Counted from the stretch's first letter, positions 1-64,000 are shown. The stretch is 64,000 bases of DNA from Deinococcales bacterium (GCA_013298595.1 JAAFIG010000006.1:66017-130016), one strand, 5' to 3'. The notes: generated from the sequence alone by a model not told the origin. Made by a program: numbers and translations.

Positions 1-620
1 TCTTTGGCAAATTCGAGGCGGAAAGGCTCGAGATCAACCACGATAATGGTGGTTGCACCAGCGGCTTTAGCGGCTTGTACCACTGTACAACCAATAGCAC
101 CACCACCAAAAATAGCAATGCTGGCACCCATACCAATACCTGAGCGTTGCACTGCCCAAACAGCCACTGATAATGGCTCGAGCAGTGCAGCCGCTTCTAA
201 ACTGACATGGTCTGGAATTTTAAAAACAAAATCTTCTGCCCATGCCACATACTCGGCAAAAGCACCATCTACGGGTGGGGTTGCCATAAAAACAATATTC
301 GGACAAAGATTGTAGCGTCCGCGTTTACAATGATAACAAGTGCGGCAACACACCCCAGGCTCGAGACTGACCCGATCACCAACTTGCAAATGCTTCACAC
401 TCGAGCCAACGGCTGCTACCACCCCAGCGGATTCGTGTCCAAGAATCATGGGTGCATTGACCACGTACTGCCCAATGTGCATATCGGTGTAATAATGCAC
501 ATCCGAACCACACACCCCAACTCGAGCAATTTTGACCAGCACTTCATGCGCGGCAGGTACAGGAATGGCTCTGCTCTCGAGCCGTACATCTCGAATACCA
601 TGCAGCACTGCGGTTTGCAT
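1..620 (-). CDS. Zn-dependent medium-chain dehydrogenase (sorbitol/L-iditol or threonine dehydrogenase-like). Only the 5' part is present; the 3' end lies left of the window.
   Basis: Absent from the ORF track because it runs off the window. My minus-strand translation from the ATG at 620-618 reads MQTAVLHGIRDVRLESRAIPVPAAHEVLVKIARVGVCGSDVHYY...ILGHESAGVV..., which are MDR/Zn-ADH signatures. The ATG overlaps the TGA of the upstream SDR gene (ATGA). An alternative start is at 626. Confidence 0.8.
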   Translation of the reverse strand, partial: MQTAVLHGIRDVRLESRAIPVPAAHEVLVKIARVGVCGSDVHYYTDMHIGQYVVNAPMILGHESAGVVAAVGSSVKHLQVGDRVSLEPGVCCRTCYHCKRGRYNLCPNIVFMATPPVDGAFAEYVAWAEDFVFKIPDHVSLEAAALLEPLSVAVWAVQRSGIGMGASIAIFGGGAIGCTVVQAAKAAGATTIIVVDLEPFRLEFAK

Positions 621-1375
621 CACCATGAGGTGTACCCACCATCCACGACGACATTAGAACCTGTCATAAAACTCGAGGCTGGACTTGCTAAGAATACGGC
701 TACGGCTGCCACTTCGGTTGGTTCGCCCAAACGACCCATTGGCGTGCTGCTCAGCCACGTGTCACGCCACTCGGGAGTCTCGAGTCCGAGTTTGGTCATG
801 GGTGTGCCAATATAACCCGGACTGATGCAATTAACTCGGATGCCACGACTTGCCCATTCGCCAGCCAAGGACTTAGTTAAATGAATCACGCCTGCTTTGG
901 CGGCGTTGTACGCCGATTGCGGTTGTGGACGATTAGAAATCATGCCTGACATTGAACCGATATTGATAATCGTACCAAAACCTTGTTTCAGCATGATCTG
1001 TGCCACCTCTCGGCAACCATAAAAAACCCCATCTAAATCTATACTCATCACCAACCGCCACTCATCGTCGGATACATCCTCAGATGGAGTATTGCGACAA
1101 ATTCCTGCGTTATTGACCAAGCAATCAATCCGCCCATGCTTAGCCGCCACCGCTTGCACCATGGCTCGCACACTACTCGAGGAAGTCACATCGGTTGCGA
1201 TAAAATCGCCCTGCAACTCGAGCGCAGATTCAGCCCCGACAATTGCGTCGGCTTCGGCAATGACCACAAATGCTCCAGATGCTTTCATAGCTCGAGCAAT
1301 CTCTAAGCCAATACCACGACCACCACCCGTAACAATAACGATTTGCGACTCGAGAGAATAATTTGGTTGGCTCAT
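620..1375 (-). CDS. Short-chain dehydrogenase/reductase (classical SDR)
   Basis: Contains the TGGGRGIG cofactor motif, NNAG and the YNAAK catalytic motif. I prefer the internal start MSQPNYS at 1375 because AAGGAG lies 4-5 nt upstream. The track ORF extends to 1408. Confidence 0.85.
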   Translation of the reverse strand: MSQPNYSLESQIVIVTGGGRGIGLEIARAMKASGAFVVIAEADAIVGAESALELQGDFIATDVTSSSSVRAMVQAVAAKHGRIDCLVNNAGICRNTPSEDVSDDEWRLVMSIDLDGVFYGCREVAQIMLKQGFGTIINIGSMSGMISNRPQPQSAYNAAKAGVIHLTKSLAGEWASRGIRVNCISPGYIGTPMTKLGLETPEWRDTWLSSTPMGRLGEPTEVAAVAVFLASPASSFMTGSNVVVDGGYTSW

Positions 1376-1494
1376 AAAGCTCCTTGTGGAAGGGCGAGAG
1401 GAAGGCAAGGAAAATTGAATGTCAATATCAGTGTTGAGTAGTCAATGATGCAGAGGTTTTTTGATTTCTTTTTTCTACAACATGTTTAGATTTC

Positions 1495-1520
1495 GTAGGG
1501 GCGAACCTTGTGTTCGCCCT
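1495..1520 (+). repeat. REP-like element: GTAG head plus hairpin (GTAGGGGCGAACcttgtGTTCGCCC)
   Basis: Read directly from the sequence. Same family as 35749-35773. Confidence 0.7.
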
Positions 1521-1587
1521 GTGTAGGACAACATGATCTGAATTTGTATTGAAAAGTGTTTTGTGAACCATTGATCGTGTAACTTGT

Positions 1588-1610
1588 GTAAAGCAAACCC
1601 TGTGTTTGCC
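1588..1610 (+). repeat. Degenerate REP-like hairpin (gtaaaGCAAACcctgtGTTTGCc)
   Basis: Same layout as 1495-1520, with substitutions in the head and stem. Confidence 0.45.
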
Positions 1611-1759: not shown

Positions 1760-1766
1760 GGTTTAC

Positions 1767-4683: not shown

Positions 4684-6048
4684 TTACTTCTTGTAACCGC
4701 CTTCTTTAGCAACTTTTTCAGCGGCTGTTTGACCAAGTTTCAGAGCTTGGGAAACACTGTACTGACCAGCTAAGGCACCTGCCACATATTGTCCAACTTG
4801 TGTACCAAGGGCTTGAAATTCTGGAATACCCACAAATTGCACACCAACGTAAGGAACTGGATCTTTCGTGGCATCGGTTGGATCAGCACGATTGATTGAA
4901 TCTAGGGTGATACCAGCAAAATCACCAGCTGCTTTTTTGTACTCTGGGTTAGCATAGGTGCTGGCTCGAGTTCCTGGGGGTACGCTTGCCCATGTACCAT
5001 TGGTTTTGGCTACTAAAGCAATGTATTCTTTACTGGTTGCCCATGTAATAAACTTAAAGGCGGCATCACTGACTTTACTCGATTTTGGAATAGCTAACGA
5101 CCATGACCAGAGCCAGTTGCTACCTTTTGGAGTGCCAGGTCCTGTTGGGGCGTTGGCAAAACCAACGGTATCCACAATCTTTGATTGACGTGGGTCTTTG
5201 AGGAATCCTGCTGCCACTGTTGCATCAATCCACATACCACATTTGTTTTGGCTCATATAGGTTAGGTTTTCGGTAAAACCATTACCTGTTGCTCCAGGAG
5301 CACCATATTTCTTTTGTAAATTAACGTAGAACGTCAGGGCACTGTTCCAAGCTGGCGAGTTGATGGTAGCGTTCCAGTTTGTATCAAACCAGCGTCCACC
5401 AAAGGTATTAACCATTGTGCTAAACACTGCCATGTTCTCACCCCAACCAGGTAAGCCACGTAAGCAAATACCAAAGAAACCATTTTGGGGTTTATGTAGT
5501 TTAGCTGCAAAGGTTTGAATTTGTGTCCATGTTGGTTTTACAGGCATGGTCAGTTTAGCCGCAGCAAAAGCAGCTTTGTTATAAAAAGTCATACTTGACT
5601 CGGCATAGAAAGGTAAGGCGTACAGATTTTTGTTGTACGACAAGCCAAGGCGAACTGGTGTTAAAAGGTCGGCTAGGTCGTAACTGGCTTTGATGCTAGC
5701 ATTTCTATCAAACAGTGCATCCATTGAGTTTAACCAACCGTTTTTTGCCCAAATTGGCACTTCGTACGTACCAATGGTGGCAACATCATAACTCCCTGCA
5801 CCCGTGGCAATATCAGTGGTAACTTTTTGGCGTAATTCGTTTTCTGGTAGCACATTCCATTTTAAGTTAATACTAGGGTTAGCTGCTTCAAAGACATTGG
5901 TCAAACTTTCCATCGTTTTCATATCCGAGTTGTTGACCGTAGCGATGGTCACAGTGACTGGACTTTGGGCAAATGCTCCTGTGGCTAAGGCAGCAATCGC
6001 AGCACTCGAGACTAAACCTGCACTGATAATCCAAACTTTTGATTTCAT
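4684..6048 (-). CDS. Sugar/polyol ABC transporter substrate-binding protein (family 1 SBP)
   Basis: Has an N-terminal signal peptide and the ~450-aa size and composition typical of family 1 solute-binding proteins. It is the first gene of the transporter operon. Confidence 0.85.
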   Translation of the reverse strand: MKSKVWIISAGLVSSAAIAALATGAFAQSPVTVTIATVNNSDMKTMESLTNVFEAANPSINLKWNVLPENELRQKVTTDIATGAGSYDVATIGTYEVPIWAKNGWLNSMDALFDRNASIKASYDLADLLTPVRLGLSYNKNLYALPFYAESSMTFYNKAAFAAAKLTMPVKPTWTQIQTFAAKLHKPQNGFFGICLRGLPGWGENMAVFSTMVNTFGGRWFDTNWNATINSPAWNSALTFYVNLQKKYGAPGATGNGFTENLTYMSQNKCGMWIDATVAAGFLKDPRQSKIVDTVGFANAPTGPGTPKGSNWLWSWSLAIPKSSKVSDAAFKFITWATSKEYIALVAKTNGTWASVPPGTRASTYANPEYKKAAGDFAGITLDSINRADPTDATKDPVPYVGVQFVGIPEFQALGTQVGQYVAGALAGQYSVSQALKLGQTAAEKVAKEGGYKK

Positions 6049-6329: not shown

Positions 6330-7344
6330 CCTCGATGTTGCTAAAAAAGCAGGGGTTTCACCCACCACTGCAAAACGCGCCGTCAATCAACCACACCTCT
6401 TAACTCAGGCTACCTTAGAACGCGTCCAAACCGCCATTCAAGCCCTCAATTACGAACCTGACCGCATGGCAGGCGCACTGCGGCGCGGACACAGCAAAAC
6501 CATTGGCTTAATGGTTGGTAACATCATCGAACCATTCTTTGCCCAACTCACCCGTACAATCGCTAAAGCTGTCCATGCCAAAGGTTACGCCCTCATTATT
6601 GCCGACAACGAATACGACTCGAGCCTTGAACTCGAGAATTTACGTATGTTCCACGGACAACGGGTCAGTGGTCTTATTTTGCGTTCCGCTTTCGGCACAG
6701 GCAACCTCGAGTATATGCAACGCTTACAAGAACAAGGCACATTTATTCTCGAGATAGACCATTTTTTAGCCAATAGTGGCTTTAGTCATATCATGCTTGA
6801 TAACCGTGCAGGTGTCGAAATGGGGCTGCGGTACTTACATAGTTTAGGACATCAAAAAATCGCACCTTTAACCTTATTTGATGCCACCAAGCTCCAAGAC
6901 GAACGCGCCAAAGCCTTCAATGAAATCATGCTAAGCCTTGGCTTAAAAATACCCAAAGCCTATCAACACAGCACCACCCCAACTGAAGAAGGCGCGTACC
7001 AACGCACCCTCGAGTTAATGCGATTACCTGACCCACCCACCGCGATTATTTCCATGACTGGTAACGAAGCTGCAGGCGCTTTTCGAGCCTTCAAAGAAAA
7101 AAATATTCGCATTCCAGAAGATGTTTCTTTTTTAACTTTCGATGATTACTCGTGGATGAGTTTAGTCGAACCACCCTTAGATGTGATCGTGCAACCAATT
7201 GAAGCAATGGGTTTACGAGCCGTAGAAATAACCATTAGTGCCATCGAACGCCGCCAACTAGATACCGTAGTACAAGAACGATTCCCCAGCCGTTTAATTC
7301 GCCGAGGCAGTTGTACCGCACCAAGAAAACACACTTTGAAATAA
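6319..7344 (+). CDS. LacI-family transcriptional regulator
   Basis: From the GTG at 6319 the N-terminus reads (M)TSILDVAKKAGVSPTTAKRAVNQ, the canonical LacI HTH, followed by a periplasmic-binding-like sugar domain. No in-frame ATG lies between 6151 and the HTH; the track ORF's upstream extension (6112-6318) precedes the HTH and covers the operator sites. Confidence 0.8.
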   Translation: MTSILDVAKKAGVSPTTAKRAVNQPHLLTQATLERVQTAIQALNYEPDRMAGALRRGHSKTIGLMVGNIIEPFFAQLTRTIAKAVHAKGYALIIADNEYDSSLELENLRMFHGQRVSGLILRSAFGTGNLEYMQRLQEQGTFILEIDHFLANSGFSHIMLDNRAGVEMGLRYLHSLGHQKIAPLTLFDATKLQDERAKAFNEIMLSLGLKIPKAYQHSTTPTEEGAYQRTLELMRLPDPPTAIISMTGNEAAGAFRAFKEKNIRIPEDVSFLTFDDYSWMSLVEPPLDVIVQPIEAMGLRAVEITISAIERRQLDTVVQERFPSRLIRRGSCTAPRKHTLK

Positions 7345-7390
7345 ATTCTCGAGTACACAAAAATATTAAGTGTGCACTCGAGAATTTTTC
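7343..7390. terminator. Hairpin terminator between the convergent LacI and BNR genes
   Basis: The arms aaattctcgagtacac / gtgtgcactcgagaattt give about 16 bp with 1 mismatch. Each arm contains CTCGAG. A T-run follows on the plus strand. Confidence 0.6.
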
Positions 7391-9724: not shown

Positions 9725-9844
9725 TAGGTTTTACCTCGAGTCTGACCTTAATTCTGACACCTCGAGCCAACCAAGAAACAATTCTCGAGCACAGATTGAT
9801 TGTCACTCGAGGTGGATTTAGACAACCCACCTCGAGTTTGTTGG

Positions 9845-20638: not shown

Positions 20639-22204
20639 ATGATAACCACCATGAATCGCGGGTATTTCGCTCCAATCCTCAATCTCTCGAGTTACAAGCA
20701 TTTGTTGTACTTTATCTCGAGTTGGCTACTGGTTTTGTTGTACCCAATTGGCATTTTGCTAGTGACCATACTGGCAATACTGAGTTTTGGCTCGAGTATG
20801 GGTTTGATCCTACCAGCAAGTTGGTTAGTCTTACAAATTCTCAATCTCGAGAGAATCCGCGCCAATACTTTGCTTGAAACCAAAATTGTTTTCCCTGCCG
20901 TACCACAACAAAATCGGGCAGTTTGGTGGAAAGAACAATTGTTTAGTATCACCACCGCTCGAGGTTTTGCTTTTTTGCTTCTCAATACACTATTTTCAGG
21001 TGCAACCCTGATTGTACTAGGCGCAATGCTTTACGTCACGGGTTTGCTGTTATTCGCACCAATTGTAGCTGCATTACAACTTTTTGATACTTTTTCTTTT
21101 TGGCGCGACAGCATACTTTGGACGGGTTCGGAAGGTTTAAGATTCACTGCACTCAGCAGTATGATTGCCTTTATTGCTGGAATTCCAATGCTGAATTTGA
21201 CACTGCAATGCTCGGATTTTCTGGCTAACATTTGGCGCGTAGCAACCGAAAACGCATTATCGGACGATAAATCTTCACAGCGCATTGTGCAAGCCCTCGA
21301 GAAAGCCAGTAAAAGTGTGCTTGAAGACAACACTCAAACAACCATTCAAACCATTCTTGAACAAGGTCTAAACGCTTCACGTGCCACAGGTGCTGGTATT
21401 GGTACGCACCGCATCAATCTTGAATCAAGTGATCTCGAACAGCCAAAAAATCATGTATTACGTGTTCCACTCGAGTACAGCAATGAGTTACTAGCACTCT
21501 ATAAAAATGCGCCGCCGAATGCTCGAGATACAAATTTATGGAAAGCACTTGGAACCCATGCCAGTACTGCTTTGAAACTCGAGCAATTGCTGCATAAAGA
21601 ACGCACTCGAGGCAGCGAAGAAGAACGTGCCCGCATTGCCAGAGAATTACACGACAGCGTAGCACAAGCTTTGTACGGCATTGCGCTTGGCACTCGCAGC
21701 GCCCTCGAGCAACTCAACACAAATCCAGCAAATGCCAAAAAATCACTCGAATACGCCATAGACCTAGCTGATGGTGGCACAGCCGAAATGAAAACCTTGT
21801 TATTTGCTTTGCGTCCAGATGCACTCGAGGAAGGAGGGCTTGCGGCAGCTCTACAAAAACTCGGAGAAATGCTATTCGCACGGTACAAACTCGAGGCAAT
21901 TGTTTTAGCACCACTCGAGCCAGAAATTTCACTCGAGACTAAAGGAATGCTTTACCGTATTGCCCAAGAAGCCGTTCATAACACTGTTAAACATGCCAAA
22001 GCCAAACAAGTTCAAATTCGTCTTGAAACAGGAATCCTCGAGATCACTGATAACGGACGTGGGTTTGACACAACAATGACTCGATCAGGAGCACTTGGCA
22101 TTAAAAGTATGCGTGAACGCGCCAAGAGTATAGGTTCAACCCTTGAAATAACATCGGGTATTTCTGGCACACGAATTCTTATTATTTTCGGAGGCACAAA
22201 ATGA
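20639..22204 (+). CDS. Membrane sensor histidine kinase, NarL/DegS type (HisKA_3 plus HATPase)
   Basis: Has an N-terminal multi-TM region, an H-box (ELHDSVAQAL), an N-box (QEAVHNTVKHA) and a G-box (DNGRGF). Confidence 0.85.
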   Translation: MITTMNRGYFAPILNLSSYKHLLYFISSWLLVLLYPIGILLVTILAILSFGSSMGLILPASWLVLQILNLERIRANTLLETKIVFPAVPQQNRAVWWKEQLFSITTARGFAFLLLNTLFSGATLIVLGAMLYVTGLLLFAPIVAALQLFDTFSFWRDSILWTGSEGLRFTALSSMIAFIAGIPMLNLTLQCSDFLANIWRVATENALSDDKSSQRIVQALEKASKSVLEDNTQTTIQTILEQGLNASRATGAGIGTHRINLESSDLEQPKNHVLRVPLEYSNELLALYKNAPPNARDTNLWKALGTHASTALKLEQLLHKERTRGSEEERARIARELHDSVAQALYGIALGTRSALEQLNTNPANAKKSLEYAIDLADGGTAEMKTLLFALRPDALEEGGLAAALQKLGEMLFARYKLEAIVLAPLEPEISLETKGMLYRIAQEAVHNTVKHAKAKQVQIRLETGILEITDNGRGFDTTMTRSGALGIKSMRERAKSIGSTLEITSGISGTRILIIFGGTK

Positions 22205-23103
22205 ATGGACTTACTCGCGTTGTAATTAGTGTTTTATTCCTTGGAGCATGTGCTATTGCCATGCGTTTAACGCTAGTAAAAACAGAAGTACTAGAAGTTC
22301 AACCACAAAAACATTCCGCTACACTCGCTATAAAACAAGCTAAGGCAGTTCAATTACATATTGAAAGCGGACATTTCATGAGCCAACTCGGTATACAAGA
22401 CGGTCAAGATAGTTTGATAAGTGGCTTATATAACGCATCTCGAGCTGATCAACTCACTTTAACCAAAGACAATAAAAATGGCATGCTAAATGCGAATCTG
22501 ATATTTGGGAAGTTAGTTAATACCAGTTTTATGACAACTGCTCCAAACAAACCCAGCACTGGAAATATTAGCTTACCTAAAAATATACCGTTAAGCATCG
22601 AAGTCTTTGCTTCCGAATTACAAGAAACTTTTTTTCAGTTTGATTTCAAAAACTTGCAAATCCAGAAATTTAACTTTGATAGTCTAAACACAGCTTCACT
22701 AATCAGTTTGATTGCTCCAGCAGCAATCAAAAATGCCGAAATCAATGTTAAAAACAGTAAGGGTAAAACAAATGCTCTTATCACACCTCAAACACAAGGT
22801 AAATTCGTTTTCTTTAACGAAGCTGGTAATCTTGTTTTAGCACTAAGTAAAAATCCATCTATGAAAATACTCATTATCGGTAACGCTAACACAAAAACCG
22901 ATCTTCTCGAACGCATACAATTTATGGCTGGTTATTCACCATCAGACTTCCAATATATCAATCCGAAAGACCTGAATGTAACATTCTTTAAAAAACAAAA
23001 ATGGTTACTTTACAATGCAAAAGTAAAAAATCCAAAAGTCGATATCCTTGTTGATCTTGGAGAAACAGGCACACTGACTTTTTATTCAACAGAGGGGAAA
23101 TAA
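22201..23103 (+). CDS. Hypothetical AT-rich, Asn/Lys-rich single-pass membrane protein encoded between the kinase and the regulator
   Basis: ATGA overlap with the kinase stop; GGAGG lies 7 nt upstream. Its TAA stop abuts the regulator ATG. It has one N-terminal TM segment. Its composition is clearly lower in GC than both neighbours. Confidence 0.6.
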   Translation: MNGLTRVVISVLFLGACAIAMRLTLVKTEVLEVQPQKHSATLAIKQAKAVQLHIESGHFMSQLGIQDGQDSLISGLYNASRADQLTLTKDNKNGMLNANLIFGKLVNTSFMTTAPNKPSTGNISLPKNIPLSIEVFASELQETFFQFDFKNLQIQKFNFDSLNTASLISLIAPAAIKNAEINVKNSKGKTNALITPQTQGKFVFFNEAGNLVLALSKNPSMKILIIGNANTKTDLLERIQFMAGYSPSDFQYINPKDLNVTFFKKQKWLLYNAKVKNPKVDILVDLGETGTLTFYSTEGK

Positions 23104-30052: not shown

Positions 30053-30095
30053 GACTGGTATCGTACATCAATTCTTCTCGAGGCTCGAGATGGGG

Positions 30096-31169
30096 TTATT
30101 TTTGAACCATTAAAACCTTGAAACCACGTTCTCGAGTAATCAGTTCTGCGTTACCCAGTTGCATCATGGCAGCTTCATAAGGCAAGAAGTGATTTGCCAC
30201 TAACCAAATTTGGCTTCCTGCATGACTATGGCGTTTAGCAGCAGCAATAAACTCGAGGGCAACGTCGAGGCGAAGGTCACGTCCAACATGAAATGGTGGG
30301 TTCATGACAATCATATCAAAAGTGCTTTTGGCACCTAAGTTCGAGTCCACATCGGAGTGCAACACGGTGCCGCTCAGGTGATTAGCCGCCAAAGTATCGG
30401 TAGCACTTTGTACGCTAAGCACATCGTCCTCGAGCATGGTGACTATGGCACCTTCAAGGGCTAAGAACCCTGAAAGCACACCATACCCCGCACCAATGTC
30501 CAGAACTGTTTTGCCTGCGCCATTCGGTAAATGCTCGAGCAGCAAAGCACTGGCAGCATCGAGTTTACCCGAAGCAAATGTACCAGCGTGTGCCACAGCT
30601 TGTAATTGCTGTCCTCGAGCTTCGACCATAAATTTTTGTGGCTCGAGGGCTGCTGGTTTAGTCGTATTGGTTTTCTCGAGTTTGGCAACTCGAAAGCCTT
30701 TACCTCGAGCAATGATTTCGCCATCTCCAAAGAGTTTTATGGCTTCTTTGCAGTACCGATCAAAACCTTTGTCTTTGTCACCTGCTAAAAATGCAGTACC
30801 ACCATCTTTGGTGGTCTGAAAGGCTTGAAGAATAATCTGCTGCACTCTGGCATTGCCACGTTCACCATTGAGAATCGCCACAGTGATATCCGCATTTTCC
30901 AGCGTTCCAATGGTTAATTTGGTTTTTGCTAGGCAAGAAATTGCAGCTGCACTCGAGTCGGTGGCGCTCACACTTAAACCTTTGGCTTGTAATGCCAATG
31001 CGACCGCGCCACCTCTGGCACTTACATCTGCAACAGAACCTGTTAATTTCAAATCCTCGAGTGTTTCCAGTAGTAACACTTGTGCGTATTCGAGGTACGG
31101 ATAACCTGCAATACCTGCTTTGGTTAGTGCACCATTCTCAAGGGTTTTAGGTTCAAAATAAGTTGTCAT
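30096..31169 (-). CDS. Class I SAM-dependent methyltransferase with a two-lobed RsmC/RlmG-like architecture
   Basis: FASGKLDAASALLLEHLP...VLDIGAGYGVLS (SAM motif I) and MNPPFH (motif IV). The ATG overlaps the mutS TGA (ATGA). Confidence 0.75.
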   Translation of the reverse strand: MTTYFEPKTLENGALTKAGIAGYPYLEYAQVLLLETLEDLKLTGSVADVSARGGAVALALQAKGLSVSATDSSAAAISCLAKTKLTIGTLENADITVAILNGERGNARVQQIILQAFQTTKDGGTAFLAGDKDKGFDRYCKEAIKLFGDGEIIARGKGFRVAKLEKTNTTKPAALEPQKFMVEARGQQLQAVAHAGTFASGKLDAASALLLEHLPNGAGKTVLDIGAGYGVLSGFLALEGAIVTMLEDDVLSVQSATDTLAANHLSGTVLHSDVDSNLGAKSTFDMIVMNPPFHVGRDLRLDVALEFIAAAKRHSHAGSQIWLVANHFLPYEAAMMQLGNAELITRERGFKVLMVQK

Positions 31170-33691
31170 AATGTACTCCGTAATTGACTTTGTAATTGCT
31201 CAAGAATTTTCAGAGCATCCAACGGGGTTAAACGAGCAATATCCAACTCGAGAATCTGAGCACTGGTTTGCATGGCAATATCTTCGGATTGTTGTTCTAA
31301 GGCTTGTAAAATACTGTTAGCTCGAGTGGTCACAGCGGGTGGTAAACCAGCCAGTTGTGCCACATGCACACCATAACTTTTACTCGCAGCCCCAGGCATA
31401 ACTTGATGATAAAACCGCAATCCATTCTGGGCTTCTTCTTCGGCAGCCACATGTAAATTACTGATACCCGATAAGGTTGTCTCGAGCTTTGTTAATTCAA
31501 AGTAATGCGTGGCAAACAAAACAGCAGCCTTGGTTTGGGATAGAAATTCTATGGCTGCTTGGGCAATTGCCAGTCCGTCATAGGTACCTGTGCCGCGTCC
31601 AATTTCATCAAGAATCACAAGGCTGTTGGCAGTCACACCATGCAAAATATGGGCAAGTTCGCGCATTTCGACCATAAAAGTACTGGCACCACCTGCCAGA
31701 TCATCCGAAGCTCCAATACGAGTAAAAATACGATCAAAAATTCGCAGTTGTGCGCTTTGGGCAGGCACAAAAGAACCAATTTGTGCCAACAAAACAACCA
31801 ACGCCGTTTGGCGCAAAAACGTGCTTTTGCCACTCATATTCGGACCCGTAATGAGTTGGATTCGGCTCGAGTTAGACAGGGTAATATCATTAGGCACAAA
31901 ATTGTCTAAGGTTGTTTCAACCACAGCATGACGAGCTTGTACCACCCTGACTTCACCTGACTCGAGGATGGTTGGTAAAACATACCCTCGGTTAGCTGCA
32001 ATATCGGCAAGGTTTGCTAAGACATCCAAATCGGCAAGGGCACTGGAAAGCAGTTGTAAACGTTCAGTATGGTTCGTCAGTTGCGCTCGTAACTCGAGAA
32101 AAACGGTGTATTCTCTGGCTTGGGCGCGTTCTTCGGAATGCAGCACTTCACGTTCTTTTTCTCGTAAATCTTGGCGAGTAAAACGCATTCGGTCTTTCAG
32201 AGTAGCAACCGCTCGGTAATCATCTGGAACAAGGTGTTTATGGGCATTGGTGATCTCGAGGTAATAACCAAAAATATTATTAAAGCCAACTTTTAAGCTG
32301 TTAATACCAGTTCGCACCCGTTCTGAAGTCTCGAGATGAGCAATCCATGTTCTACCCTCAAGTGCTCTGGCACGGCATTCATCAAGTTCGGCATCGAAGC
32401 CATCGCGGATAAAACCGCCTTCGGTTAAACGCAGTGGCGGGGTTTCGATTAAGGCTGCTCGAATAATTTTGGCAGCGTTGGCAATCGGGTCTAAACGGGT
32501 TTGTAAATCGCGCAGCAACCTTGCATCCAAAGGTTCAAGTAAAACTTTTAATTCTGGTATTAACTCGAGGGTTCGTAACAAAGCATTAAAATCTCTGGCA
32601 TTAGCCCGTTGCATTGCCACTCTGGTAGCAAGTCGCTCGAGGTCATGAGCATGATGCAAAGCCGCCCGAATACTTTTACGACTTTCGGAATCACGGTGCA
32701 AAACACTGACCGCCTCGAGCCGTTCAGCAATCAAATGAGCATCTAATAATGGTGCTCTCAACCAAGCTTTTAAGCGCCGTCGCCCAGGAGCTGTGCGAGT
32801 ATCGTTTAATGCACCAAACAATGTGGCACTTTCAGGGGCTGTAGGCGATAACGGCGTAAAAACCTCGAGTGCTCGCAATGCCGCTTCATCTAAACGCATA
32901 TGCGCTCCAGGGTCGTACCGTTGCACCCGCCGCACTGCTGGCAAATTGGTATGCTCGAGGACTTTACTGGCATAAGCCAGCACTGCCCCACAAACCCGTT
33001 GCAAAGCCGTGGTCTCGAGCATTGTAGGCGCAGAACCAAATTGTACTGTCAAAGCAGCAATGGCATCGGACAAAGCAAAACTGGCACTTGAACGCATAAT
33101 TGGGAATCTGGCATTAAATTCCTGCATAAACGTAGCATTGTCCTCGAGTTCAGGAGCCAGTAAAACCTCGGCTGGTCGGTACCGCGATAATTCATCGTAT
33201 AATGCCCCTCGGCTTGAAACTTGGCAACAGCGAAATTCACCAGTACTCACATCGAGTAATGCCAGCGCGTACCCATCACCAGAAGCAACACTGGCAAGAA
33301 AATTTTCTTCACCCCGTAAAATATCCTCGAGCGCCACTGTGCCAGGAGTAATAATTTGTGTCACAGCCCGTTCGACCAAACCTTTGGCTGTACTTGGGTC
33401 TTCAACTTGTTCTGCCACTGCAATACGCTGCCCAAGTTTGAGTAAACGCTCGATATGGGTTTCGGCAGCTCTGACAGGAATACCTGCCATTGGCGTGGAA
33501 AAATCCTTAGATTGCTTATGGGTTAAAGTGATATTGAGTAACCTCGAGAGGCGTTCGGCATCCTCACCAAAAGCTTCAAAAAAATCACCCACCTGAAATA
33601 ACAACACATACTCTGCGTACTGATCACGCAACCGCACATACTGCTCGAGCAGTGGCGGCAAAATACCTGAACCTGTTCCCTTCAACGACAT
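31166..33691 (-). CDS. mutS: DNA mismatch repair protein MutS
   Basis: The N-terminal mismatch-binding domain contains GDFFE. Also present are Walker A (GPNMSGKST), DEIGRGT and STFMVEM. Confidence 0.95.
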   Translation of the reverse strand: MSLKGTGSGILPPLLEQYVRLRDQYAEYVLLFQVGDFFEAFGEDAERLSRLLNITLTHKQSKDFSTPMAGIPVRAAETHIERLLKLGQRIAVAEQVEDPSTAKGLVERAVTQIITPGTVALEDILRGEENFLASVASGDGYALALLDVSTGEFRCCQVSSRGALYDELSRYRPAEVLLAPELEDNATFMQEFNARFPIMRSSASFALSDAIAALTVQFGSAPTMLETTALQRVCGAVLAYASKVLEHTNLPAVRRVQRYDPGAHMRLDEAALRALEVFTPLSPTAPESATLFGALNDTRTAPGRRRLKAWLRAPLLDAHLIAERLEAVSVLHRDSESRKSIRAALHHAHDLERLATRVAMQRANARDFNALLRTLELIPELKVLLEPLDARLLRDLQTRLDPIANAAKIIRAALIETPPLRLTEGGFIRDGFDAELDECRARALEGRTWIAHLETSERVRTGINSLKVGFNNIFGYYLEITNAHKHLVPDDYRAVATLKDRMRFTRQDLREKEREVLHSEERAQAREYTVFLELRAQLTNHTERLQLLSSALADLDVLANLADIAANRGYVLPTILESGEVRVVQARHAVVETTLDNFVPNDITLSNSSRIQLITGPNMSGKSTFLRQTALVVLLAQIGSFVPAQSAQLRIFDRIFTRIGASDDLAGGASTFMVEMRELAHILHGVTANSLVILDEIGRGTGTYDGLAIAQAAIEFLSQTKAAVLFATHYFELTKLETTLSGISNLHVAAEEEAQNGLRFYHQVMPGAASKSYGVHVAQLAGLPPAVTTRANSILQALEQQSEDIAMQTSAQILELDIARLTPLDALKILEQLQSQLRSTL

Positions 33692-38094: not shown

Positions 38095-38232
38095 ATGAAA
38101 TCTGAACCAAAATCCATACCTATGACACCAGTAAAAAAACCATTCCAAGGTATGAAACCTTTGGTTTTATCGCCACGTCCACAATTTACGGTCAATATTA
38201 CGGCTGCTATTCGTAAGTTACGTGACCAATGA
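38095..38232 (+). CDS. Unannotated 45-aa ORF, candidate antitoxin of the downstream PIN gene
   Basis: My translation: MKSEPKSIPMTPVKKPFQGMKPLVLSPRPQFTVNITAAIRKLRDQ*. Its TGA overlaps the PIN ATG (ATGA at 38229-38232). It is below the size cut-off of the track. Confidence 0.45.
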   Translation: MKSEPKSIPMTPVKKPFQGMKPLVLSPRPQFTVNITAAIRKLRDQ

Positions 38233-39651: not shown

Positions 39652-39763
39652 GGCAGCTGATTGTAACAGGAAAAAAAGGCAGAAAGCAGTTTTAACCAGA
39701 AAATACTAACCGATGAACGATACGATGTTTAGGAATTTAAGCGTTATTCACACAGGGAGGCAC

Positions 39764-42556: not shown

Positions 42557-43551
42557 CCCCATCAGAACTCAAATCCACTTTGGATCGTTTTGTGATGGCT
42601 TCTTTGCGTCATTCGATTATGATTTGGGGTGCACCTGGCATTGGCAAAAGCAGTATTGTTGCCCAAGTTGCTCAAACTCACAACCTCGAGTTTACGGATT
42701 TACGCCTCTCACAACTTGCGCCGACTGATTTGCGTGGGTTGCCTGTGCCTGAAAATGGAGTCTCGAGGTGGTTTCCGCCAATTTTTTTGCCTCGAGCAGG
42801 ACGTGGAATTCTTTTTTTGGATGAGTTGAACATGGCTCCTCCTGCTTTGCAAGGCGTTGCTCAACAACTGATTTTGGATCGTAAGGTCGGGGAGTACATC
42901 GTGCCTGAAGGCTGGTTTATCTGGGCGGCTGGCAATCGCAAAGAAGACCGTGCCAGTGTTTTTGATATGCCCGCGCCGTTGGCGAATCGTTTTGTGCATT
43001 TTGAAGTTGAACCTGATTTTGATGCGTTTAAGTTCTACGCTTTTGAACGCGGTATCCACGAGCAGATTCTTGGTTTTTTGTCGTTTCGCCCGACCCTTTT
43101 GCATCGCATGGATGATGACCGTCCCGCTTGGGCAAGTCCGCGTTCGTGGGAGATTGCCAGCAGTTTGCACAGCACAGGCTTGGAGATTGGTTCAGCCGTT
43201 GGCGCTCCTGCGGCTGCTGAGTTTTACGCTTTTCTCGAGGTTTACGCGGTACTGCCAAGCATCGAGCCGATTCTAGCGGGCAGCAGCACCGCCAATTTTC
43301 CGACTGAACCGAGCGCTCAGTTTGCGATTACCACCGCCCTTGCGACTCGAGCCAAAACCGCTAAAGAGGCTGTGGCAGCCTTTCGTTGGGTGGCAAGGGG
43401 AGCGCCGAGGGATTGGTTGGCGCTGATGGCGAATGATTTGCGGGTGCAAATGCAATCCAAAGGACAAGTTGGTGCATTCGCACAATTGCTGATGCAGGAC
43501 AAAGAATTACGTGAGGCGACTCAGGCGTTTCAGGCGCTTTTAAACCTATGA
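42553..43551 (+). CDS. MoxR-like AAA+ ATPase (AAA_5 type)
   Basis: Walker A (GAPGIGKS), Walker B (ILFLDELN) and sensor-1 (AAGN). ATGA overlap with the LRV gene stop. Confidence 0.85.
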   Translation: MTPSELKSTLDRFVMASLRHSIMIWGAPGIGKSSIVAQVAQTHNLEFTDLRLSQLAPTDLRGLPVPENGVSRWFPPIFLPRAGRGILFLDELNMAPPALQGVAQQLILDRKVGEYIVPEGWFIWAAGNRKEDRASVFDMPAPLANRFVHFEVEPDFDAFKFYAFERGIHEQILGFLSFRPTLLHRMDDDRPAWASPRSWEIASSLHSTGLEIGSAVGAPAAAEFYAFLEVYAVLPSIEPILAGSSTANFPTEPSAQFAITTALATRAKTAKEAVAAFRWVARGAPRDWLALMANDLRVQMQSKGQVGAFAQLLMQDKELREATQAFQALLNL

Positions 43552-44765
43552 ACCTCGAGCCAGATGATGCTAAACGCCTCAGTGCGAGTTTGTTTCGCCT
43601 GACCAGTGCTGCGCCGTTTTTTGCTGCTTTAGCACGGTACGCTCGGCTTGAGAGCAGTTTGGAAATTCCCACGGCTGCGACAGATGGTATCAGTATTTTT
43701 TGGAATCCAGATTTTCTGCGTTCACTTTCTAAACTCGAGCGTGATGCTGTTTTGCTGCATGAGGTACTGCATTGTGCTTTGTCGCACATCACCCGCCGAG
43801 GTATGCGCGAAGCTAGACTCTGGAACATTGCTTGCGATATTGTGGTCAATGGCATGATTGCTGCAGAAGGTAAGTTTACCTTGCCCAAAGGTCATATCCG
43901 ATTGCCTGATCTCGAGCATTTGGCAGTTGAAGAAGTTTATGCATTATTAGAAAAGCAAATACCGATACTTGAGTTGCCAATGCTAGATTTGCTCGAGATT
44001 GCTCCAAGCGATTGCCAAGGCGATAAGTCTGGTGATAGCAAGGGCGAAAAAGACCGTGATGAACAGGGCAACAATGACTCAGAAGGCAACCCAGATGGCA
44101 AAAGCAAAAAAGCCCCGATGGGTTTGACTCCAGCTCAAAAAACTCGTCTCGAGCAGCATTGGCACGACGCAATGCGTCGTGCCGAAATGACTTGCCGTAA
44201 CCAAGGGACAATGCCACTCGGGATGCAGCGTGAATTGGCTCGGCTGGGGCGTTCACAACTGAATTGGCAGGCTTTGCTGGCGAGGTTCTTGATTCGCACC
44301 CCAACGGATTTCTTGGGTTTTGATCGGCGTTTCCTGCACCAAAAATTGTATCTCGAGGCACTTGAAGGCGAAAGTGTCCAGACGTATGTTTGCATAGACA
44401 CAAGCGGTTCAATTAGCAATAAAGAAATGAATCTGCTGTTTACCGAAGTCCAAGCTGTACTACGGGCGTACCCGCAAGTCAAATGCGAATTATTTTTTGC
44501 TGATGCAGATTTATATGGCGGGTTTAAAATTCAAGCTCGAGATAAAATGCCAATGCCTCAAGGTGGTGGTGGTACCGATTTCAGACCTTTTTTTACTCAA
44601 CTCGAGCAGCAGCGTTTGCAGTTGGAAGCGGTTGCCATTTACTTAACCGATGGTTTTGGCTCATTTCCACAAAAAAAGCCGCGTTTGCCTGTGCTATGGG
44701 TGGTAGTACCTGGTGGTCTCGAGTCTAGTGCTTTTCCGTTTGGTACAGTCATTCGGATGGTATAA
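43548..44765 (+). CDS. HExxH metallopeptidase-like N-domain plus VWA domain protein (DUF2201-like)
   Basis: HEVLH at codons 71-75 (43758-43772). The MIDAS-like segment VCIDTSGSIS is present. An acidic low-complexity linker joins the domains. ATGA overlap with the AAA gene. Confidence 0.8.
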   Translation: MNLEPDDAKRLSASLFRLTSAAPFFAALARYARLESSLEIPTAATDGISIFWNPDFLRSLSKLERDAVLLHEVLHCALSHITRRGMREARLWNIACDIVVNGMIAAEGKFTLPKGHIRLPDLEHLAVEEVYALLEKQIPILELPMLDLLEIAPSDCQGDKSGDSKGEKDRDEQGNNDSEGNPDGKSKKAPMGLTPAQKTRLEQHWHDAMRRAEMTCRNQGTMPLGMQRELARLGRSQLNWQALLARFLIRTPTDFLGFDRRFLHQKLYLEALEGESVQTYVCIDTSGSISNKEMNLLFTEVQAVLRAYPQVKCELFFADADLYGGFKIQARDKMPMPQGGGGTDFRPFFTQLEQQRLQLEAVAIYLTDGFGSFPQKKPRLPVLWVVVPGGLESSAFPFGTVIRMV

Positions 44766-61815: not shown

Positions 61816-61827
61816 AGCTCGGGCGTA

Positions 61828-62706
61828 TTACAGTGCTATTTTTTTTGGTAATTCTTCACGTAATCCTGGGAGCATGATAGTTTCGACGTACTCGCGGTCT
61901 TGTACTCGAGGAGCAAGAAACGCCAGATTGGTCAGCCATTCGGCAATGGTGAACAAATGGCGTTGCTGCCCAAATTCTTTTGGTAATGGTTGCACAGTCC
62001 CGTAGCCACGCAAAAAAGCCTCTCGAGGTTCAGATTCGAGATAGCCTAAGGCTGTGACAATATCAAATGTGATTGGTCCAAAACCACAACGGTCAAAGTC
62101 TATGATTGCTACTTTTTCATTGTGCCAAATCATATTGCCCGCATGTAAATCCGCATGAATAAGACTCCATGTTGTTACACCATCCATAAAAGCTGTTTGC
62201 GCTTTTCGCATGGCTTGCTCGAGCAATGGCATGTCAGGTTCTAGCCATTCAATACCACGCAAAATATTCAGTGTGTCCTCGAGATATGCAATGTTGTAAT
62301 GAAGCCGTTCAAAACCAATGGGTGCCTTAAAATCTTGGGCAATGACATGGAGTTTTGCCAGTAATGCACCCACCATTTCAGCTTGGGTTTCGTTGATTTC
62401 CTCGAGTACCGTGCCTTCGATCCATGTCAGTAAAGAAAAACGCTTGGATGCTTGCTCGAGAATAAAATTACCACTGGCTAAAGCAACAGGTTTTTGCACC
62501 TCGAGTCCGTGTTGTTGTAAGTGATGCAGCCAAAGCATCTCGGATTCAAGGGCTGCTAGGCTATAGGAAGCTGTTTGATGTTGTCTTAGAATATATTTTT
62601 CACCTGCAGCTGTGCTAATCACATGGTTAATATTTTGAGTATCACCGAGGAGTTCAGTGGTGACAGGCTGTATGGCAAATTGCTCGAGCACAGATGCTAA
62701 ATTCAT
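61828..62706 (-). CDS. Aminoglycoside phosphotransferase-fold kinase (APH / homoserine kinase type II-like)
   Basis: HADLHAGNMIW catalytic loop and IDFDRCGFG metal-binding motif. Confidence 0.75.
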   Translation of the reverse strand: MNLASVLEQFAIQPVTTELLGDTQNINHVISTAAGEKYILRQHQTASYSLAALESEMLWLHHLQQHGLEVQKPVALASGNFILEQASKRFSLLTWIEGTVLEEINETQAEMVGALLAKLHVIAQDFKAPIGFERLHYNIAYLEDTLNILRGIEWLEPDMPLLEQAMRKAQTAFMDGVTTWSLIHADLHAGNMIWHNEKVAIIDFDRCGFGPITFDIVTALGYLESEPREAFLRGYGTVQPLPKEFGQQRHLFTIAEWLTNLAFLAPRVQDREYVETIMLPGLREELPKKIAL

Positions 62707-63233
62707 ATGTATTTGTTATAGCTGTTGCAGAAACACCTCGGCAATAGGCGGATTGACATAGCTTCTGATCACAAGTACATCGAGGTAGCTCGAGTGTGTT
62801 CTTTTTGTAGTAATAACAAAATTGCATCGGAATCTAAGCTGCTTTGGTGTTACGTCAGCAGAGACTCGAGTTAAAAGTTTTTATGCTGCATAATGACTTG
62901 TTAGAGACAGTCTTTACACTTGCCTTAGGTTAATCATTCGTCTGAGGCGCTATTCTCTTGCATTACTACGTCTATAGCGAAATGATTATTTGTAAGCTAC
63001 TTAACTTGACGCTGCCCCCAGATGTGGTATGCTACCAATATCAAAGCACGAGATATTGACACTTGATGGTCAAAACCGACATCAAACTGGCGTATTTCAA
63101 GGGAGTGCGACATGAACGAACCAACAGTCGAACAGCCACGCCTCCCCAACATCAACTAAACCCTCACCCCAAGCTTCTCGAAAACTTCGAGACGCTACAA
63201 TTTTGACCCCAATCCACTCGGAGGCAACAAATC

Positions 63234-64000
63234 ATGACTGCATTGCTCGAACCCACCCCACCTGTTTATCACTTCGACGATCACGCTCAAAGCATCGCCA
63301 AACGCCAATATATGCAACCCTCTGATGGCGATGTTTTCGGCATGTTCCGTCGTATTGCCAATTGGGTCTCGAGTGCCGAACCAACCTCTGAATTAAAAGC
63401 CAAATGGGGCGAAACCTTCTACGATCTCATGGCAAGTAAACGCTTTTGCCCAGGTGGGCGCGTACTAGCAGGCGCAGGCACGCAGCACGGCAATGTACTC
63501 AATTGTTTTGTTCAAGGCGCAACCGAATACGACCCTGCCAGCTTTGAAGGTGTCATGGAAGTCGCCAAGAAACTTGCCTTGGTCACCAAAGTTGGCGGTG
63601 GCAACGGCGTTAATTTAGATGTCTACGCCCCAAGAGCCACCACCAGCCGCTCCGACAATGGTGTACGCGGTTGGGCATACATGAGCGCTACCCACCCCGA
63701 TGTCGAAGATTTTATCAAAGGCTTAATGCGCCCACCAACCATGCCAGACGGCGAAAAACAACCCACCAGCATCCGCAACTGGTCAAAAGTGGTTTACGGC
63801 GTGATCTCCCCTGCCTTATCTAGCTTAGCAAGGCAATACGGAGTCAACTTAGTCAGTAGCCTGCCCGATAATGTCAATACCATTCACGACGATATGGGTG
63901 GCATTCTCGAAGCAGCCAAACAAGTCTGTGCCACTGCCAAAGCTGGACTCGAGCCACGCATAGACCTTTCAGGCTTACGCGAAGAAGGCGCACCCATTAA
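63234..64000 (+). CDS. nrdJ: Class II (adenosylcobalamin-dependent) ribonucleotide reductase. Only the 5' part is present; it continues right of the window.
   Basis: Absent from the ORF track (no stop in the window). My translation: MTALLEPTPPVYHFDDHAQSIAKRQYMQPSDGDVFGMFRRIANWV...FCPGGRVLAGAGT...LNCFV...VGGGNGVNLD...IDLSGLREEGAPI. GGAGG lies 9 nt upstream. Confidence 0.8.
   Translation, partial: MTALLEPTPPVYHFDDHAQSIAKRQYMQPSDGDVFGMFRRIANWVSSAEPTSELKAKWGETFYDLMASKRFCPGGRVLAGAGTQHGNVLNCFVQGATEYDPASFEGVMEVAKKLALVTKVGGGNGVNLDVYAPRATTSRSDNGVRGWAYMSATHPDVEDFIKGLMRPPTMPDGEKQPTSIRNWSKVVYGVISPALSSLARQYGVNLVSSLPDNVNTIHDDMGGILEAAKQVCATAKAGLEPRIDLSGLREEGAPI

Follow-up and report, generated by a model that had tools for sequence, protein, structure and literature searches.

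A HIP-Like Excess of the Hexamer CTCGAG in a Deep Lineage of Deinococcota

Introduction

HIP1 (GCGATCGC) and the alternate HIPs (GGCGCC, GCsGC, rCCGGy, GGGATCCC, and TCGATCGA) form the HIP-type class of words in cyanobacteria (Elhai, 2015; Xu et al., 2018). These highly iterated palindromes occur at 0.3–2.7 sites/kb and have been described only in cyanobacteria. The alternate HIPs are sporadic, and each co-occurs with a cognate methyltransferase; one is present in every HIP genome examined. A published ratchet model of HIP accumulation predicts that a new site close to an existing one gains no bias. HIP1 was recently linked to a methylation-dependent boost of natural transformation and has been proposed as an uptake signal. 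The origin and role of such palindromes is a problem some 30 years old, so far studied in one phylum.

Two other systems are relevant for comparison. The uptake sequences of Pasteurellaceae (USS) and Neisseriaceae (DUS) are asymmetric, 9–12 nt long, and present at about 1/kb, and biased uptake of DNA carrying them has been shown experimentally. They occur in all reading frames, approximately double the peptides they encode, are lacking in genes without homologues, and require no selection to accumulate. In Escherichia coli, the Dcm/Vsr system raises the frequency of the methyltransferase site CCWGG by sequence-specific short-patch mismatch correction. It demonstrates that repair can bias oligonucleotide frequencies, with an effect well under 2-fold and depletion of the T:G-derived neighbor.

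Here we describe a stretch of 64,000 bp (the window) from a Deinococcales bacterium in which the palindrome CTCGAG is extremely abundant. A first-pass annotation of the window, made from the sequence alone, had noticed this abundance and knew of no description for the lineage; no earlier report of a CTCGAG excess was found in the literature.

Results

The window contains 411 copies of CTCGAG by exact count (6.4/kb, mean spacing 156 bp), and the estimate by eye had been about 410. Counts per 4 kb range from 14 to 37, indicating that the sites are spread along the entire window. The expected number is 13 from base composition and 6.6, 30, and 139 from first-, second-, and third-order Markov models; dinucleotide-preserving shuffles gave 6.42 ± 2.79 copies (maximum 13). 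A fourth-order model expects 351, a figure that is circular because its sub-words are dominated by CTCGAG itself. Shuffles preserving both amino-acid sequence and codon usage (300 in total) contained 30.6 ± 5.1 genic copies (maximum 46), compared to 377 observed. Markov and codon-preserving controls had been proposed in the first-pass annotation. Features of the window are listed in Table 1.

Table 1. Features of the window and their CTCGAG content
Feature	Position	Strand	Description
CTCGAG dispersed copies	1..64000	.	411 total (377 genic, 34 intergenic)
Solute-binding protein gene	4684..6048	-	2 sites, 1.5/kb; belongs to low-density ABC transporter operon
Hairpin between convergent genes	7343..7387	.	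17-nt arms, 94% complementary, CTCGAG in each
Intergenic spacer	9725..9844	.	120 bp, 5 sites; densest CTCGAG cluster in window
Hairpin	9805..9837	.	14-nt arms, 93% complementary, CTCGAG in each
Histidine kinase gene	20639..22204	+	16 sites, 10.2/kb (10 CTC-GAG, 3 xCT-CGA-Gxx, 3 xxC-TCG-AGx)
Atypical gene	22201..23103	+	GC 35%, no family match; 1 site, 1.1/kb
Closest CTCGAG pair	30077..30089	.	CTCGAGGCTCGAG; 7 bp start to start
NPPF (NPPY-type) methyltransferase	30096..31169	-	Only one in window; translationally coupled to mutS
mutS	31166..33691	-	18 sites; used for codon alignment across taxa, test of site conservation, and tree

Genic copies are read as CTC-GAG (209), xCT-CGA-Gxx (97), and xxC-TCG-AGx (71), while the codon-preserving shuffles predict 18.8, 9.1, and 2.7, respectively; all three frames are 11–27x above this expectation. 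Density is 6.5/kb in coding and 5.6/kb in intergenic DNA. With every frame and the spacers enriched, as had been claimed on first reading, the excess points to action at the DNA level. The eight histidine kinase peptides cited in support of that claim were all found in the frames given for them. Outside Leu-Glu pairs, CTC accounts for 8% of Leu codons and GAG for 19% of Glu codons, which bears out the earlier impression by eye that both are minor codons.

Occupancy of the available positions is near saturation. The share of opportunities spelled as CTCGAG is 68% for Leu-Glu, 66% for [SPTA]-R-[VADEG], and 39% for X-S-[SR]. Over-representation of the encodable peptides relative to expectation is 2.56x for Leu-Glu, 1.71x for Ser-Ser, and 1.43x for [SPTA]R[VADEG]. 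The approximately 2.6x excess of Leu-Glu indicates that CTCGAG has reshaped proteins, and it distorts amino-acid and dipeptide statistics.

The excess is specific to the exact hexamer, which is typical of a type II enzyme. The most frequent one-mismatch neighbor has only 26 copies versus 411, and variants by position number 95 (outer) and 49 and 48 (inner). TCGA occurs 599 times, and 411 of these are inside CTCGAG; the 188 outside compare with about 246 expected. The remaining palindromes with a TCGA core are nearly missing (ATCGAT 6, GTCGAC 1, TTCGAA 0). No conserved sequence flanks the sites, which have a slight purine/pyrimidine preference only. All other palindromes are strongly avoided in the window (GGCC, 2 versus about 190 expected; CCGG, 11 versus 100–180), and 27% of hexamer palindromes are absent from it. 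The general avoidance of restriction-type palindromes, to which the first-pass annotation had drawn attention, is therefore extreme in the same genome, whereas CTCGAG, a classical type II site (XhoI, PaeR7I, TliI), is the commonest hexamer in the window.

Transition products are the commonest one-mismatch neighbors. Among Leu-Glu codon pairs they are the only ones enriched (CTTGAG 7.2x, CTCGAA 2.2x, CTTGAA 1.8x), and the other pairs are drained to 0–0.5x expectation, even those three mismatches away from CTCGAG. CTCGAG acts as a sink that leaks only via C→T/G→A transitions, which is a new finding. C→T decay is about equal at its two cytosines (43 versus 40), which argues against a single m5C hotspot in the motif.

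A further new finding is interference between CTCGAG sites over a range of about 50 bp. Occupancy of opportunities rises with distance to the next site: 4% are filled below 12 bp, 37% between 12 and 20 bp, about 50% between 20 and 50 bp, and 71–74% above 50 bp. The short-range interference was replicated in four relatives. Sites are more evenly spaced than chance would give, and distances below 50 bp and above 300 bp are under-represented; close pairs like the one in Table 1 are otherwise strongly depleted. No helical or longer periodicity of CTCGAG was detected in the window, where only the codon period was seen.

In a codon alignment of MutS, CTCGAG sites replace aligned codons with no indels, in agreement with the first-pass view of the sites as substitutions rather than inserted linkers. 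In this one gene, 11 of 18 sites are kept between relatives in one comparison (3.6 expected) and 12 of 18 in another (1.4 expected), and retention is 3–8x that of ordinary hexamers. High occupancy at conserved Leu-Glu positions can explain much of this retention, so it does not prove active restoration. Site sets are mostly private to each lineage and created by amino-acid replacements.

The window belongs to a deep Deinococcota lineage in which all sampled members except the basal one have the trait (4.7–7.1 sites/kb, GC 46–65%). A separate occurrence of the excess is seen in a Deinococcaceae subclade (7–8.6/kb), and Marinithermus hydrothermalis, which is cultured and has a closed genome, has a weaker excess (2.8/kb). 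The first-pass annotation had allowed for a peculiarity of this window; these relatives show that the trait extends beyond it, and its genome-wide status was judged from the even spread within the window together with the relatives' DNA. The trait was seen in independent assemblies from NCBI, ENA, JGI, and Logan as well as in the closed genome of the cultured strain. Close relatives lack the trait, as do L285, L288, D. peraridilitoris, and Thermus, whose GC is similar; the trait is independent of GC content. The distribution is patchy and switch-like, as expected of a portable determinant. Viral contigs with phage structural genes have the same frame-independent excess at host-like density. 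Some viral matches are tandem arrays containing CTCGAG.

A search of approximately 250 kb of trait-bearing DNA (the window and about 190 kb of relatives) yielded no DNA methyltransferase, restriction enzyme, or gene of the Vsr type; as this covers just a few percent of any one genome, the result is weak evidence of absence. The first-pass annotation had pointed to these enzyme types, and its proposed search was carried out to this extent. Enzymes that methylate CTCGAG specifically are known in nature, some of the m6A and others of the m5C type. The NPPF methyltransferase encoded in the window was rejected as a candidate because it is an orthologue of RsmC, the Thermus 16S rRNA m2G1207 methyltransferase, and hence an rRNA enzyme. 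Methylation of TCGA by the TaqI family was also rejected as the cause; Thermus caldilimi, which has a TaqI orthologue, has only 0.94/kb CTCGAG (18/0/0 by frame versus 24.6/0/0.3 expected), and the Leu-Glu fingerprint was not found in any TaqI orthologue.

Both hairpins reported in the first-pass annotation exist with CTCGAG in both arms, and the one between convergent genes is probably a bidirectional terminator incorporating two sites. The atypical gene downstream of the histidine kinase gene may have been acquired recently, too late for CTCGAG to have built up in it. Per-gene CTCGAG density correlates with gene GC (rho 0.37, p 0.012). PilT is encoded within the window.

Discussion

CTCGAG resembles the HIPs in being a short palindromic word whose enrichment is tens-fold or higher in all three frames and in non-coding DNA. 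The HIP class calls for an excess of at least about 15-fold over expectation; here the ratios are 411 versus 6.4 or 13 overall and 377 versus 31 in genes. Further likenesses are retention between related genomes above control words (in MutS, one gene, and partly explained by occupancy), a sporadic and switch-like lineage distribution, and non-random spacing. As with CGATCG in HIP1, the core (TCGA) is not enriched alone, and it is at the outer positions that one-mismatch variants depart most, a pattern also reported for HIP1. The differences are in phylum, word, length (6 bp versus mostly 8 bp), a GC content of the word of only 67%, and density, which at 4.7–8.6/kb in Deinococcota is 2–20x that of HIPs. 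Interference was measured at about 50 bp for CTCGAG, whereas saturation at about 1 kb was proposed for HIPs, and the effect on proteins has been quantified for CTCGAG. HIP genomes have a cognate methyltransferase, whereas none was found for CTCGAG in the 250 kb. Because density and phylum are outside the HIP range, CTCGAG is classed as a HIP-like variant and not as HIP1 itself; the comparison with HIP1 drawn at first reading, with CTCGAG the shorter and denser word, was apt. The Dcm/Vsr precedent has the opposite signature. The CTCGAG excess is 30–110-fold, its transition neighbors are enriched (1.8–7.2x within Leu-Glu pairs) instead of depleted, and a vsr gene was not seen in the same DNA.

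We tentatively attribute the excess to HIP-type molecular drive on the exact hexamer, likely by a methyltransferase with biased short-patch repair or gene conversion, and give this reading a probability of about 0.45. A lineage-specific DNA transaction recognizing exactly CTCGAG would turn near-cognate hexamers into it and restore mutated copies. The likeliest agent would be a DNA methyltransferase of the cell that is specific to CTCGAG. Its mark would tilt short-patch mismatch repair or gene conversion when, in these recombination-proficient bacteria, genome copies exchange with each other or with DNA arriving from kin. Such a bias would hit any DNA in the cell (all frames, spacers, and phage DNA) and would override codon preference and weakly constrained amino acids. 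Local saturation would follow if an existing site suppresses a new one within about 50 bp. Sites would be lost mainly through C→T/G→A transitions, and gain or loss of the determinant among lineages would switch the trait on or off. The measured interference matches the prediction of the ratchet model and therefore counts for HIP-type drive. No such enzyme was found in the 250 kb, so the mechanism is inferred, and with it a methyltransferase, a bias in repair or conversion, and a role for several genome copies. Against this reading stand the enriched transition neighbors, the equal decay at both cytosines, and the missing excess in Thermus with its TCGA methyltransferase. Mismatch repair in Deinococcota, which relies on MutS and an endonuclease-type MutL and has no MutH, is likewise not known to respond to methylation.

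A DNA-uptake or kin-recognition signal is a possible but rather doubtful alternative. A type IV pilus/competence step, or a step after uptake, would prefer CTCGAG (perhaps methylated), and the motif would accumulate by molecular drive as USS and DUS do. Several hallmarks of uptake sequences recur here: encodable peptides are approximately doubled, sites fall in every frame and are spaced more evenly than by chance, and inverted pairs form hairpins at gene ends. Atypical genes may also be poor in sites, as the one with GC 35% is. PilT in the window, the link of HIP1 to natural transformation, and the natural transformability of Deinococcus and Thermus also favor it. However, CTCGAG is a palindrome of 6 bp at 6.4/kb with no extended flanking consensus, and uptake in Thermus and Deinococcus is reported to be sequence-independent. 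Interference at about 50 bp is far shorter than the kilobase-scale fragments taken up or the tracts recombined, and an uptake signal should therefore have saturated at far fewer sites per kb. The host-like density in viral contigs also speaks against uptake, although prophages could gain CTCGAG in the chromosome. Selection on sites, singly or collectively, as a dense array for nucleoid organization, strand marking in replication and repair, or genome-wide epigenetic control is unlikely. Retention in MutS and regular spacing would agree with it, but occupancy of about 70% at conserved Leu-Glu positions can explain the retention, and no helical or longer periodicity was found. The benefit per site would also have to exceed the cost of amino-acid changes at thousands of positions, and the trait is fully on or off among relatives of similar biology and occurs in phage DNA. 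The forces listed in the first-pass annotation (methylation-linked repair, an uptake or binding signal, and structural selection) are thus narrowed by these data.

The remaining two explanations are refuted and have almost no probability left. One traces the excess to codon usage, preferred dipeptides, or base composition. In its favor, CTC-GAG is the frame of half the sites, and codon usage alone brings high-GC Deinococcota with a preference for CTC and GAG to about 1/kb (the Thermus control). The shuffles (31 ± 5 versus 377), the minor status of both codons outside the motif, the equal enrichment of off-frame and intergenic copies, and a trait present at GC 46–65% yet absent at intermediate GC rule out all three biases; the first-pass annotation had likewise set codon bias aside. 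CTCGAG is also a common cloning linker site, and the viral tandem arrays contain it, as might be expected if the sites were footprints of mobile mini-elements, inserted linkers, or assembly or cloning artefacts. The MutS alignment without indels, the absent flanking consensus, and the independent assemblies with a closed genome exclude this origin.

CTCGAG represents a second, independent system of iterated palindromes, with a different word in a different phylum. The interference and the sink-and-leak spectrum are quantitative constraints on any mechanism. A comparative search for the determinant is feasible, because the trait differs between close relatives, spans GC 46–65%, and occurs in a cultured organism whose genome is closed. 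A stronger version of HIP-type drive, which we consider speculative and somewhat improbable, is that a portable exact-hexamer conversion/repair module has invaded at least three Deinococcota lineages independently. Each would have been rewritten to one CTCGAG per 120–210 bp, with thousands of codons and amino acids changed, and the exclusion at about 50 bp would reflect a previously unknown sequence-directed short-patch process. If true, this would be the first tractable non-cyanobacterial model of HIP origin, with M. hydrothermalis as the cultured carrier. CTCGAG is also a strong k-mer signature for binning and phage-host linking, and XhoI would cut unmodified DNA of this kind into fragments of about 150 bp.

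CTCGAG Abundance

Highly iterated palindromes (HIP1 and the alternate HIPs) have been described in cyanobacteria only, at densities of 0.3–2.7/kb. CTCGAG works like a HIP, a form newly found in Deinococcota, and it differs from HIP1 proper in motif, taxon, and density. No account of hyper-abundant CTCGAG, or of any HIP-like element from Deinococcota, turned up in full-text literature searches.

The window (46.1% GC) contains exactly 411 copies of CTCGAG, in agreement with the approximately 410 estimated by eye in the first-pass annotation. This is far above expectation from composition (13) and from first-order (6.6), second-order (30), and third-order (139) Markov models, as well as dinucleotide-preserving shuffles (6.42 ± 2.79, maximum 13). 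The fourth-order value (351) is uninformative through circularity, since nearly all copies of CTCGA, TCGAG, and TCGA come from the motif; 411 of the 599 TCGA tetramers are inside CTCGAG. CTCGAG is the top hexamer by a wide margin, and ranks 2 to 10 are mostly hexamers that overlap it, while each of its one-mismatch neighbors has at most 26 copies. Sequence beside the sites has a slight purine/pyrimidine preference and nothing more, indicating that the true unit is the hexamer. Sites cover all parts of the window (14–37 per 4 kb).

Genes in our model (49 genes, 90% of the window) carry 377 copies (6.5/kb), and 34 copies are intergenic (5.6/kb), a slight overstatement of the truly non-coding sites because two uncalled regions look coding. 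The genic copies are read as CTC-GAG (209), xCT-CGA-Gxx (97), and xxC-TCG-AGx (71). When synonymous codons were permuted with protein sequences and global codon usage held fixed, these frames were expected to hold 18.8, 9.1, and 2.7 copies, respectively (total 30.6 ± 5.1, maximum 46). Away from Leu-Glu pairs, CTC encodes 8% of Leu and GAG encodes 19% of Glu. Codon, dipeptide, or composition bias as the cause is ruled out by the codon-preserving and dinucleotide shuffles and by background codon usage. The earlier claims of an excess beyond codon bias in all frames and of high density in non-coding DNA therefore stand, and the eight histidine kinase peptides and two hairpins offered as examples were all correct. 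Several long AT-rich spacers have no CTCGAG.

Other palindromes are avoided in the window genome to an extreme degree. GGCC has two copies (approximately 190 expected), CCGG 11 (100–180), CTAG 60 (246), and GATC 126 (206–246), and GAGCTC, TTCGAA, and GTCGAC have 0–1 copies each. Seventeen of the 64 palindromic hexamers (27%) are absent, compared with 1.3% of non-palindromes, and median observed/expected ratios are 0.22 for palindromes and 0.82 for other hexamers. Most of these zeros are common to the closest relatives (L001, L003, and L002) but not to L201, L202, and L005.

Effects on Encoded Proteins

CTCGAG reshapes proteins and is near saturation. Window proteins contain 306 Leu-Glu dipeptides compared with 120 expected from composition, while Leu-Asp, Leu-Gln, and Ile-Glu match expectation; Ser-Ser is at 1.71x and [SPTA]-R-[VADEG] at 1.43x expectation. 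Where the motif could be spelled synonymously, CTCGAG is used at 68% of Leu-Glu positions, at 66% for [SPTA]-R-[VADEG], and at 39% for X-S-[SR]. In a MutS codon alignment, CTCGAG stands in place of aligned codons with no indels, and sites often face QG, TQ, AA, TS, GE, SE, or EE in motif-free relatives. The alignment rules out inserted sequences or linkers as the origin of the sites and confirms the initial reading of them as substitutions.

Gain and loss were evaluated by setting Leu-Glu codon pairs against background codon usage. CTCGAG is used at approximately 110x expectation. Pairs one or more transversions away are all drained to 0–0.5x, including CTGGAA (2 observed, 14.5 expected), TTGGAA (7, 23.6), and TTAGAA (17, 32.5). 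The enriched alternatives are transition products only (CTTGAG 7.2x, CTCGAA 2.2x, and CTTGAA 1.8x). This pattern indicates inflow to CTCGAG even from three mismatches and exit by C→T/G→A. Decay is approximately equal at the two cytosines (43 and 40 events), which counts against a single 5-methylcytosine hotspot.

Site Spacing

A new observation is site INTERFERENCE: nearest-neighbor distances depart from exponential (Kolmogorov-Smirnov p = 4e-5). Relative to the mean of 2000 simulations in which 634 synonymous opportunities were filled randomly, close sites are rare: 1 vs. 7.3 at 6–12 bp, 7 vs. 14.4 at 12–20 bp, 16 vs. 24.9 at 20–30 bp, and 33 vs. 43.2 at 30–50 bp. Distances of 75–200 bp are commoner than simulated, and those >300 bp are rarer. 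Occupancy of opportunities rises with distance to the nearest other site, from 4% (<12 bp) to 37% (12–20 bp), approximately 50% (20–50 bp), and 71–74% (>50 bp), and four pooled relatives reproduce this curve (11, 34, 47, 61, and 71% with growing distance). The coefficient of variation of gaps between sites is 0.91, and the window has no helical or longer periodicity of sites, the codon period alone being present.

Distribution among Lineages

The window belongs to Deinococcota, as judged from DnaX, MutS, and an RsmC orthologue. Its MutS shares 65–87% identity with those of a radiation of relatives and 55–59% with those of all named genera (Marinithermus, Deinococcus, Meiothermus, and Truepera). 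In a neighbor-joining MutS tree, the window clade forms a third major branch of the phylum.

The trait (frame-independent CTCGAG hyper-abundance) extends beyond the window: it is strong in five window-clade relatives and in L201 and L287, and moderate in Marinithermus hydrothermalis. Off-frame copies in the five strong window-clade relatives are 8–30x the codon shuffle. In M. hydrothermalis, copies by frame are 49/10/5 compared with 20.2/1.5/1.1 expected; this strain is cultured with a closed genome and is a possible experimental model. Assembly GCA_965189925 is among the carriers. The trait is absent at all 75 MutS loci examined from other phyla. The complete lack of sites in L288 suggests CTCGAG avoidance in a lineage adjoining hyper-abundance. 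When metagenomes were scanned with the N-terminus of MutS, distant MutS genes dominated the matches and only L201 and L202 were gained, and the MutS Leu-Glu ratio alone failed as a trait predictor for one MutS entry (P0149). L283 also has 86 GCGCGC and 52 CGCGCG (approximately 26 expected from composition), which may reflect alternating-GC tracts or another word in excess.

CTCGAG in relatives of the window and in viral contigs
Group	Locus	Size and GC	CTCGAG	Trait
Window clade	L001 and L003	GC 49%	5.9/kb	Strong
Window clade	L002	GC 52.5%	7.1/kb	Strong
Window clade	L282	5.09 Mb contig of ERZ26165376, GC 61%	4.65/kb	Strong
Window clade	L283 (JGI 3300045256 Ga0484956_0000013)	22.6 kb, GC 65%	6.4/kb (144 copies)	Strong
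Window clade, basal member	L285	GC 55%	0.12/kb	None
Deinococcaceae subclade	L201	GC 58%	8.6/kb	Strong
Deinococcaceae subclade	L287	GC 52%	7.2/kb	Strong
Basal relative of L201/L287	L288 (Logan SRR31327528_217)	11.3 kb, GC 54%	Zero (~2–3 expected)	None
Deinococcus	D. peraridilitoris (CP003382) and D. radiomollis-like MAGs			None
Marinithermus	L286, M. hydrothermalis DSM 14884		2.84/kb, top hexamer	Moderate
Meiothermus	A Meiothermus		Excess in frame 0 only	Weak or none
Thermus	T. caldilimi, despite encoding a TaqI-type TCGA methyltransferase			None
CTCGAG-rich viral loci	L139, L175, L181, L191, L198, L133, L121, and others (L081-L200)			

Two MutS comparisons within the window clade, at 75% and 64% nucleotide identity, show 11 and 12 of the 18 sites retained, well above the 3.6 and 1.4 expected, respectively. 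Occupancy of approximately 70% at conserved Leu-Glu explains part of this retention, so retention alone is no proof of selection. The window and L201 have five MutS sites in common, all on universally conserved Leu-Glu dipeptides, and 19 of the 27 sites in L201 are unique to it. Site sets are largely private. Taken with the MutS tree, this points to three or more origins of the trait, or else to many losses.

Viral contigs were scanned for three CTCGAG within approximately 80 bp, an arrangement with 10 instances in the window and none in shuffled sequence. Approximately 20 contigs (GC 58–70%) were recovered, with CTCGAG ranking first or nearly first among hexamers (4–7/kb), off-frame copies at 5–20x the codon shuffle, and Leu-Glu at approximately 2x expectation. 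Some carry portal, tail, or tape-measure genes. No nucleotide match to deposited phages was found and attempted host assignment recovered no host; their GC agrees with that of high-GC carriers. Some viral loci have tandem arrays with CTCGAG in the repeat unit, which inflate counts and are a separate phenomenon from the dispersed sites.

Possible Mechanism

A molecular drive by a portable, sequence-specific enzyme system is suggested by the exact-hexamer specificity, the action on any resident DNA, the GC independence, and the switch-like distribution of the trait. Of the published mechanisms, Elhai's ratchet comes closest: methylation of a newly arisen methyltransferase site misleads mismatch repair, fixing the mutation. 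The ratchet offers no gain for a new site near an existing one, and this prediction fits the interference between CTCGAG sites. However, interference extends approximately 50 bp for CTCGAG and approximately 1 kb in the ratchet, suggesting a short-patch process. The main rival is an uptake-sequence drive, which reproduces the doubling of peptides encoded by the motif and would explain a scarcity of sites in novel genes; HIP1 has lately been linked to methylation-dependent transformation. Yet a 6-bp palindrome at 6/kb with 50-bp interference fits kilobase-scale uptake poorly.

With regard to the determinant of an enzyme-driven process, CTCGAG-specific methyltransferases known elsewhere are of m6A (M.TliI) and m5C (Halorubrum) types. 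Searches of the window and approximately 190 kb of carriers' DNA turned up neither a DNA methyltransferase nor a restriction enzyme or Vsr gene, and an NPPY-type and C5-type methyltransferase motif screen of all CTCGAG-rich DNA gave no genuine candidate. Two viral SPPY open reading frames had no Pfam match and were rejected. The window's only NPPF methyltransferase, an MTS-domain protein encoded beside mutS, is an RsmC orthologue (PDB 2ZUL/3DMF, E = 2e-49) and is rejected as a CTCGAG DNA methyltransferase. The neighboring Uma2 nuclease is an unlikely determinant because L285, which lacks the trait, also has a Uma2 gene near mutS. A search for M.TaqI homologues recovered nothing beyond close orthologues of the TCGA type, none of them bearing the Leu-Glu fingerprint, and the Thermus control had no CTCGAG excess. 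In L002, a SAM methyltransferase likewise follows mutS.

Other Features

No Rfam RNA families were found in the window. Two further features are a three-gene operon and a perfect palindrome that may be an operator or terminator.

Coordinates of features in the window and in compared loci
Location	Strand	Feature
316-619 and 62707-64000		Uncalled in gene model; four sites each; coding-like (unannotated or truncated gene)
1409-1766, 29186-29491, and 37880-38228		Long AT-rich spacers without CTCGAG
7343-7387 and 9805-9837		Hairpins
27705-27730		Perfect 26-bp palindrome ATCGGAAAACCAATTGGTTTTCCGAT in a 309-bp intergenic region holding a single CTCGAG
29492-33691	-	Cluster of mutS, rsmC-like 16S rRNA methyltransferase (4-bp mutS overlap), and Uma2-family PD-(D/E)xK nuclease
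39713-44765	+	Operon of 947-aa LRV/HEAT-repeat protein, AAA_5 (MoxR-like) ATPase, and DUF2201 metallopeptidase/VWA-like protein
CP002630:1494777-1517317		L286
L199:8-118 (also L118, L130, L194, and L197)		Viral tandem arrays, period ~12–20 bp
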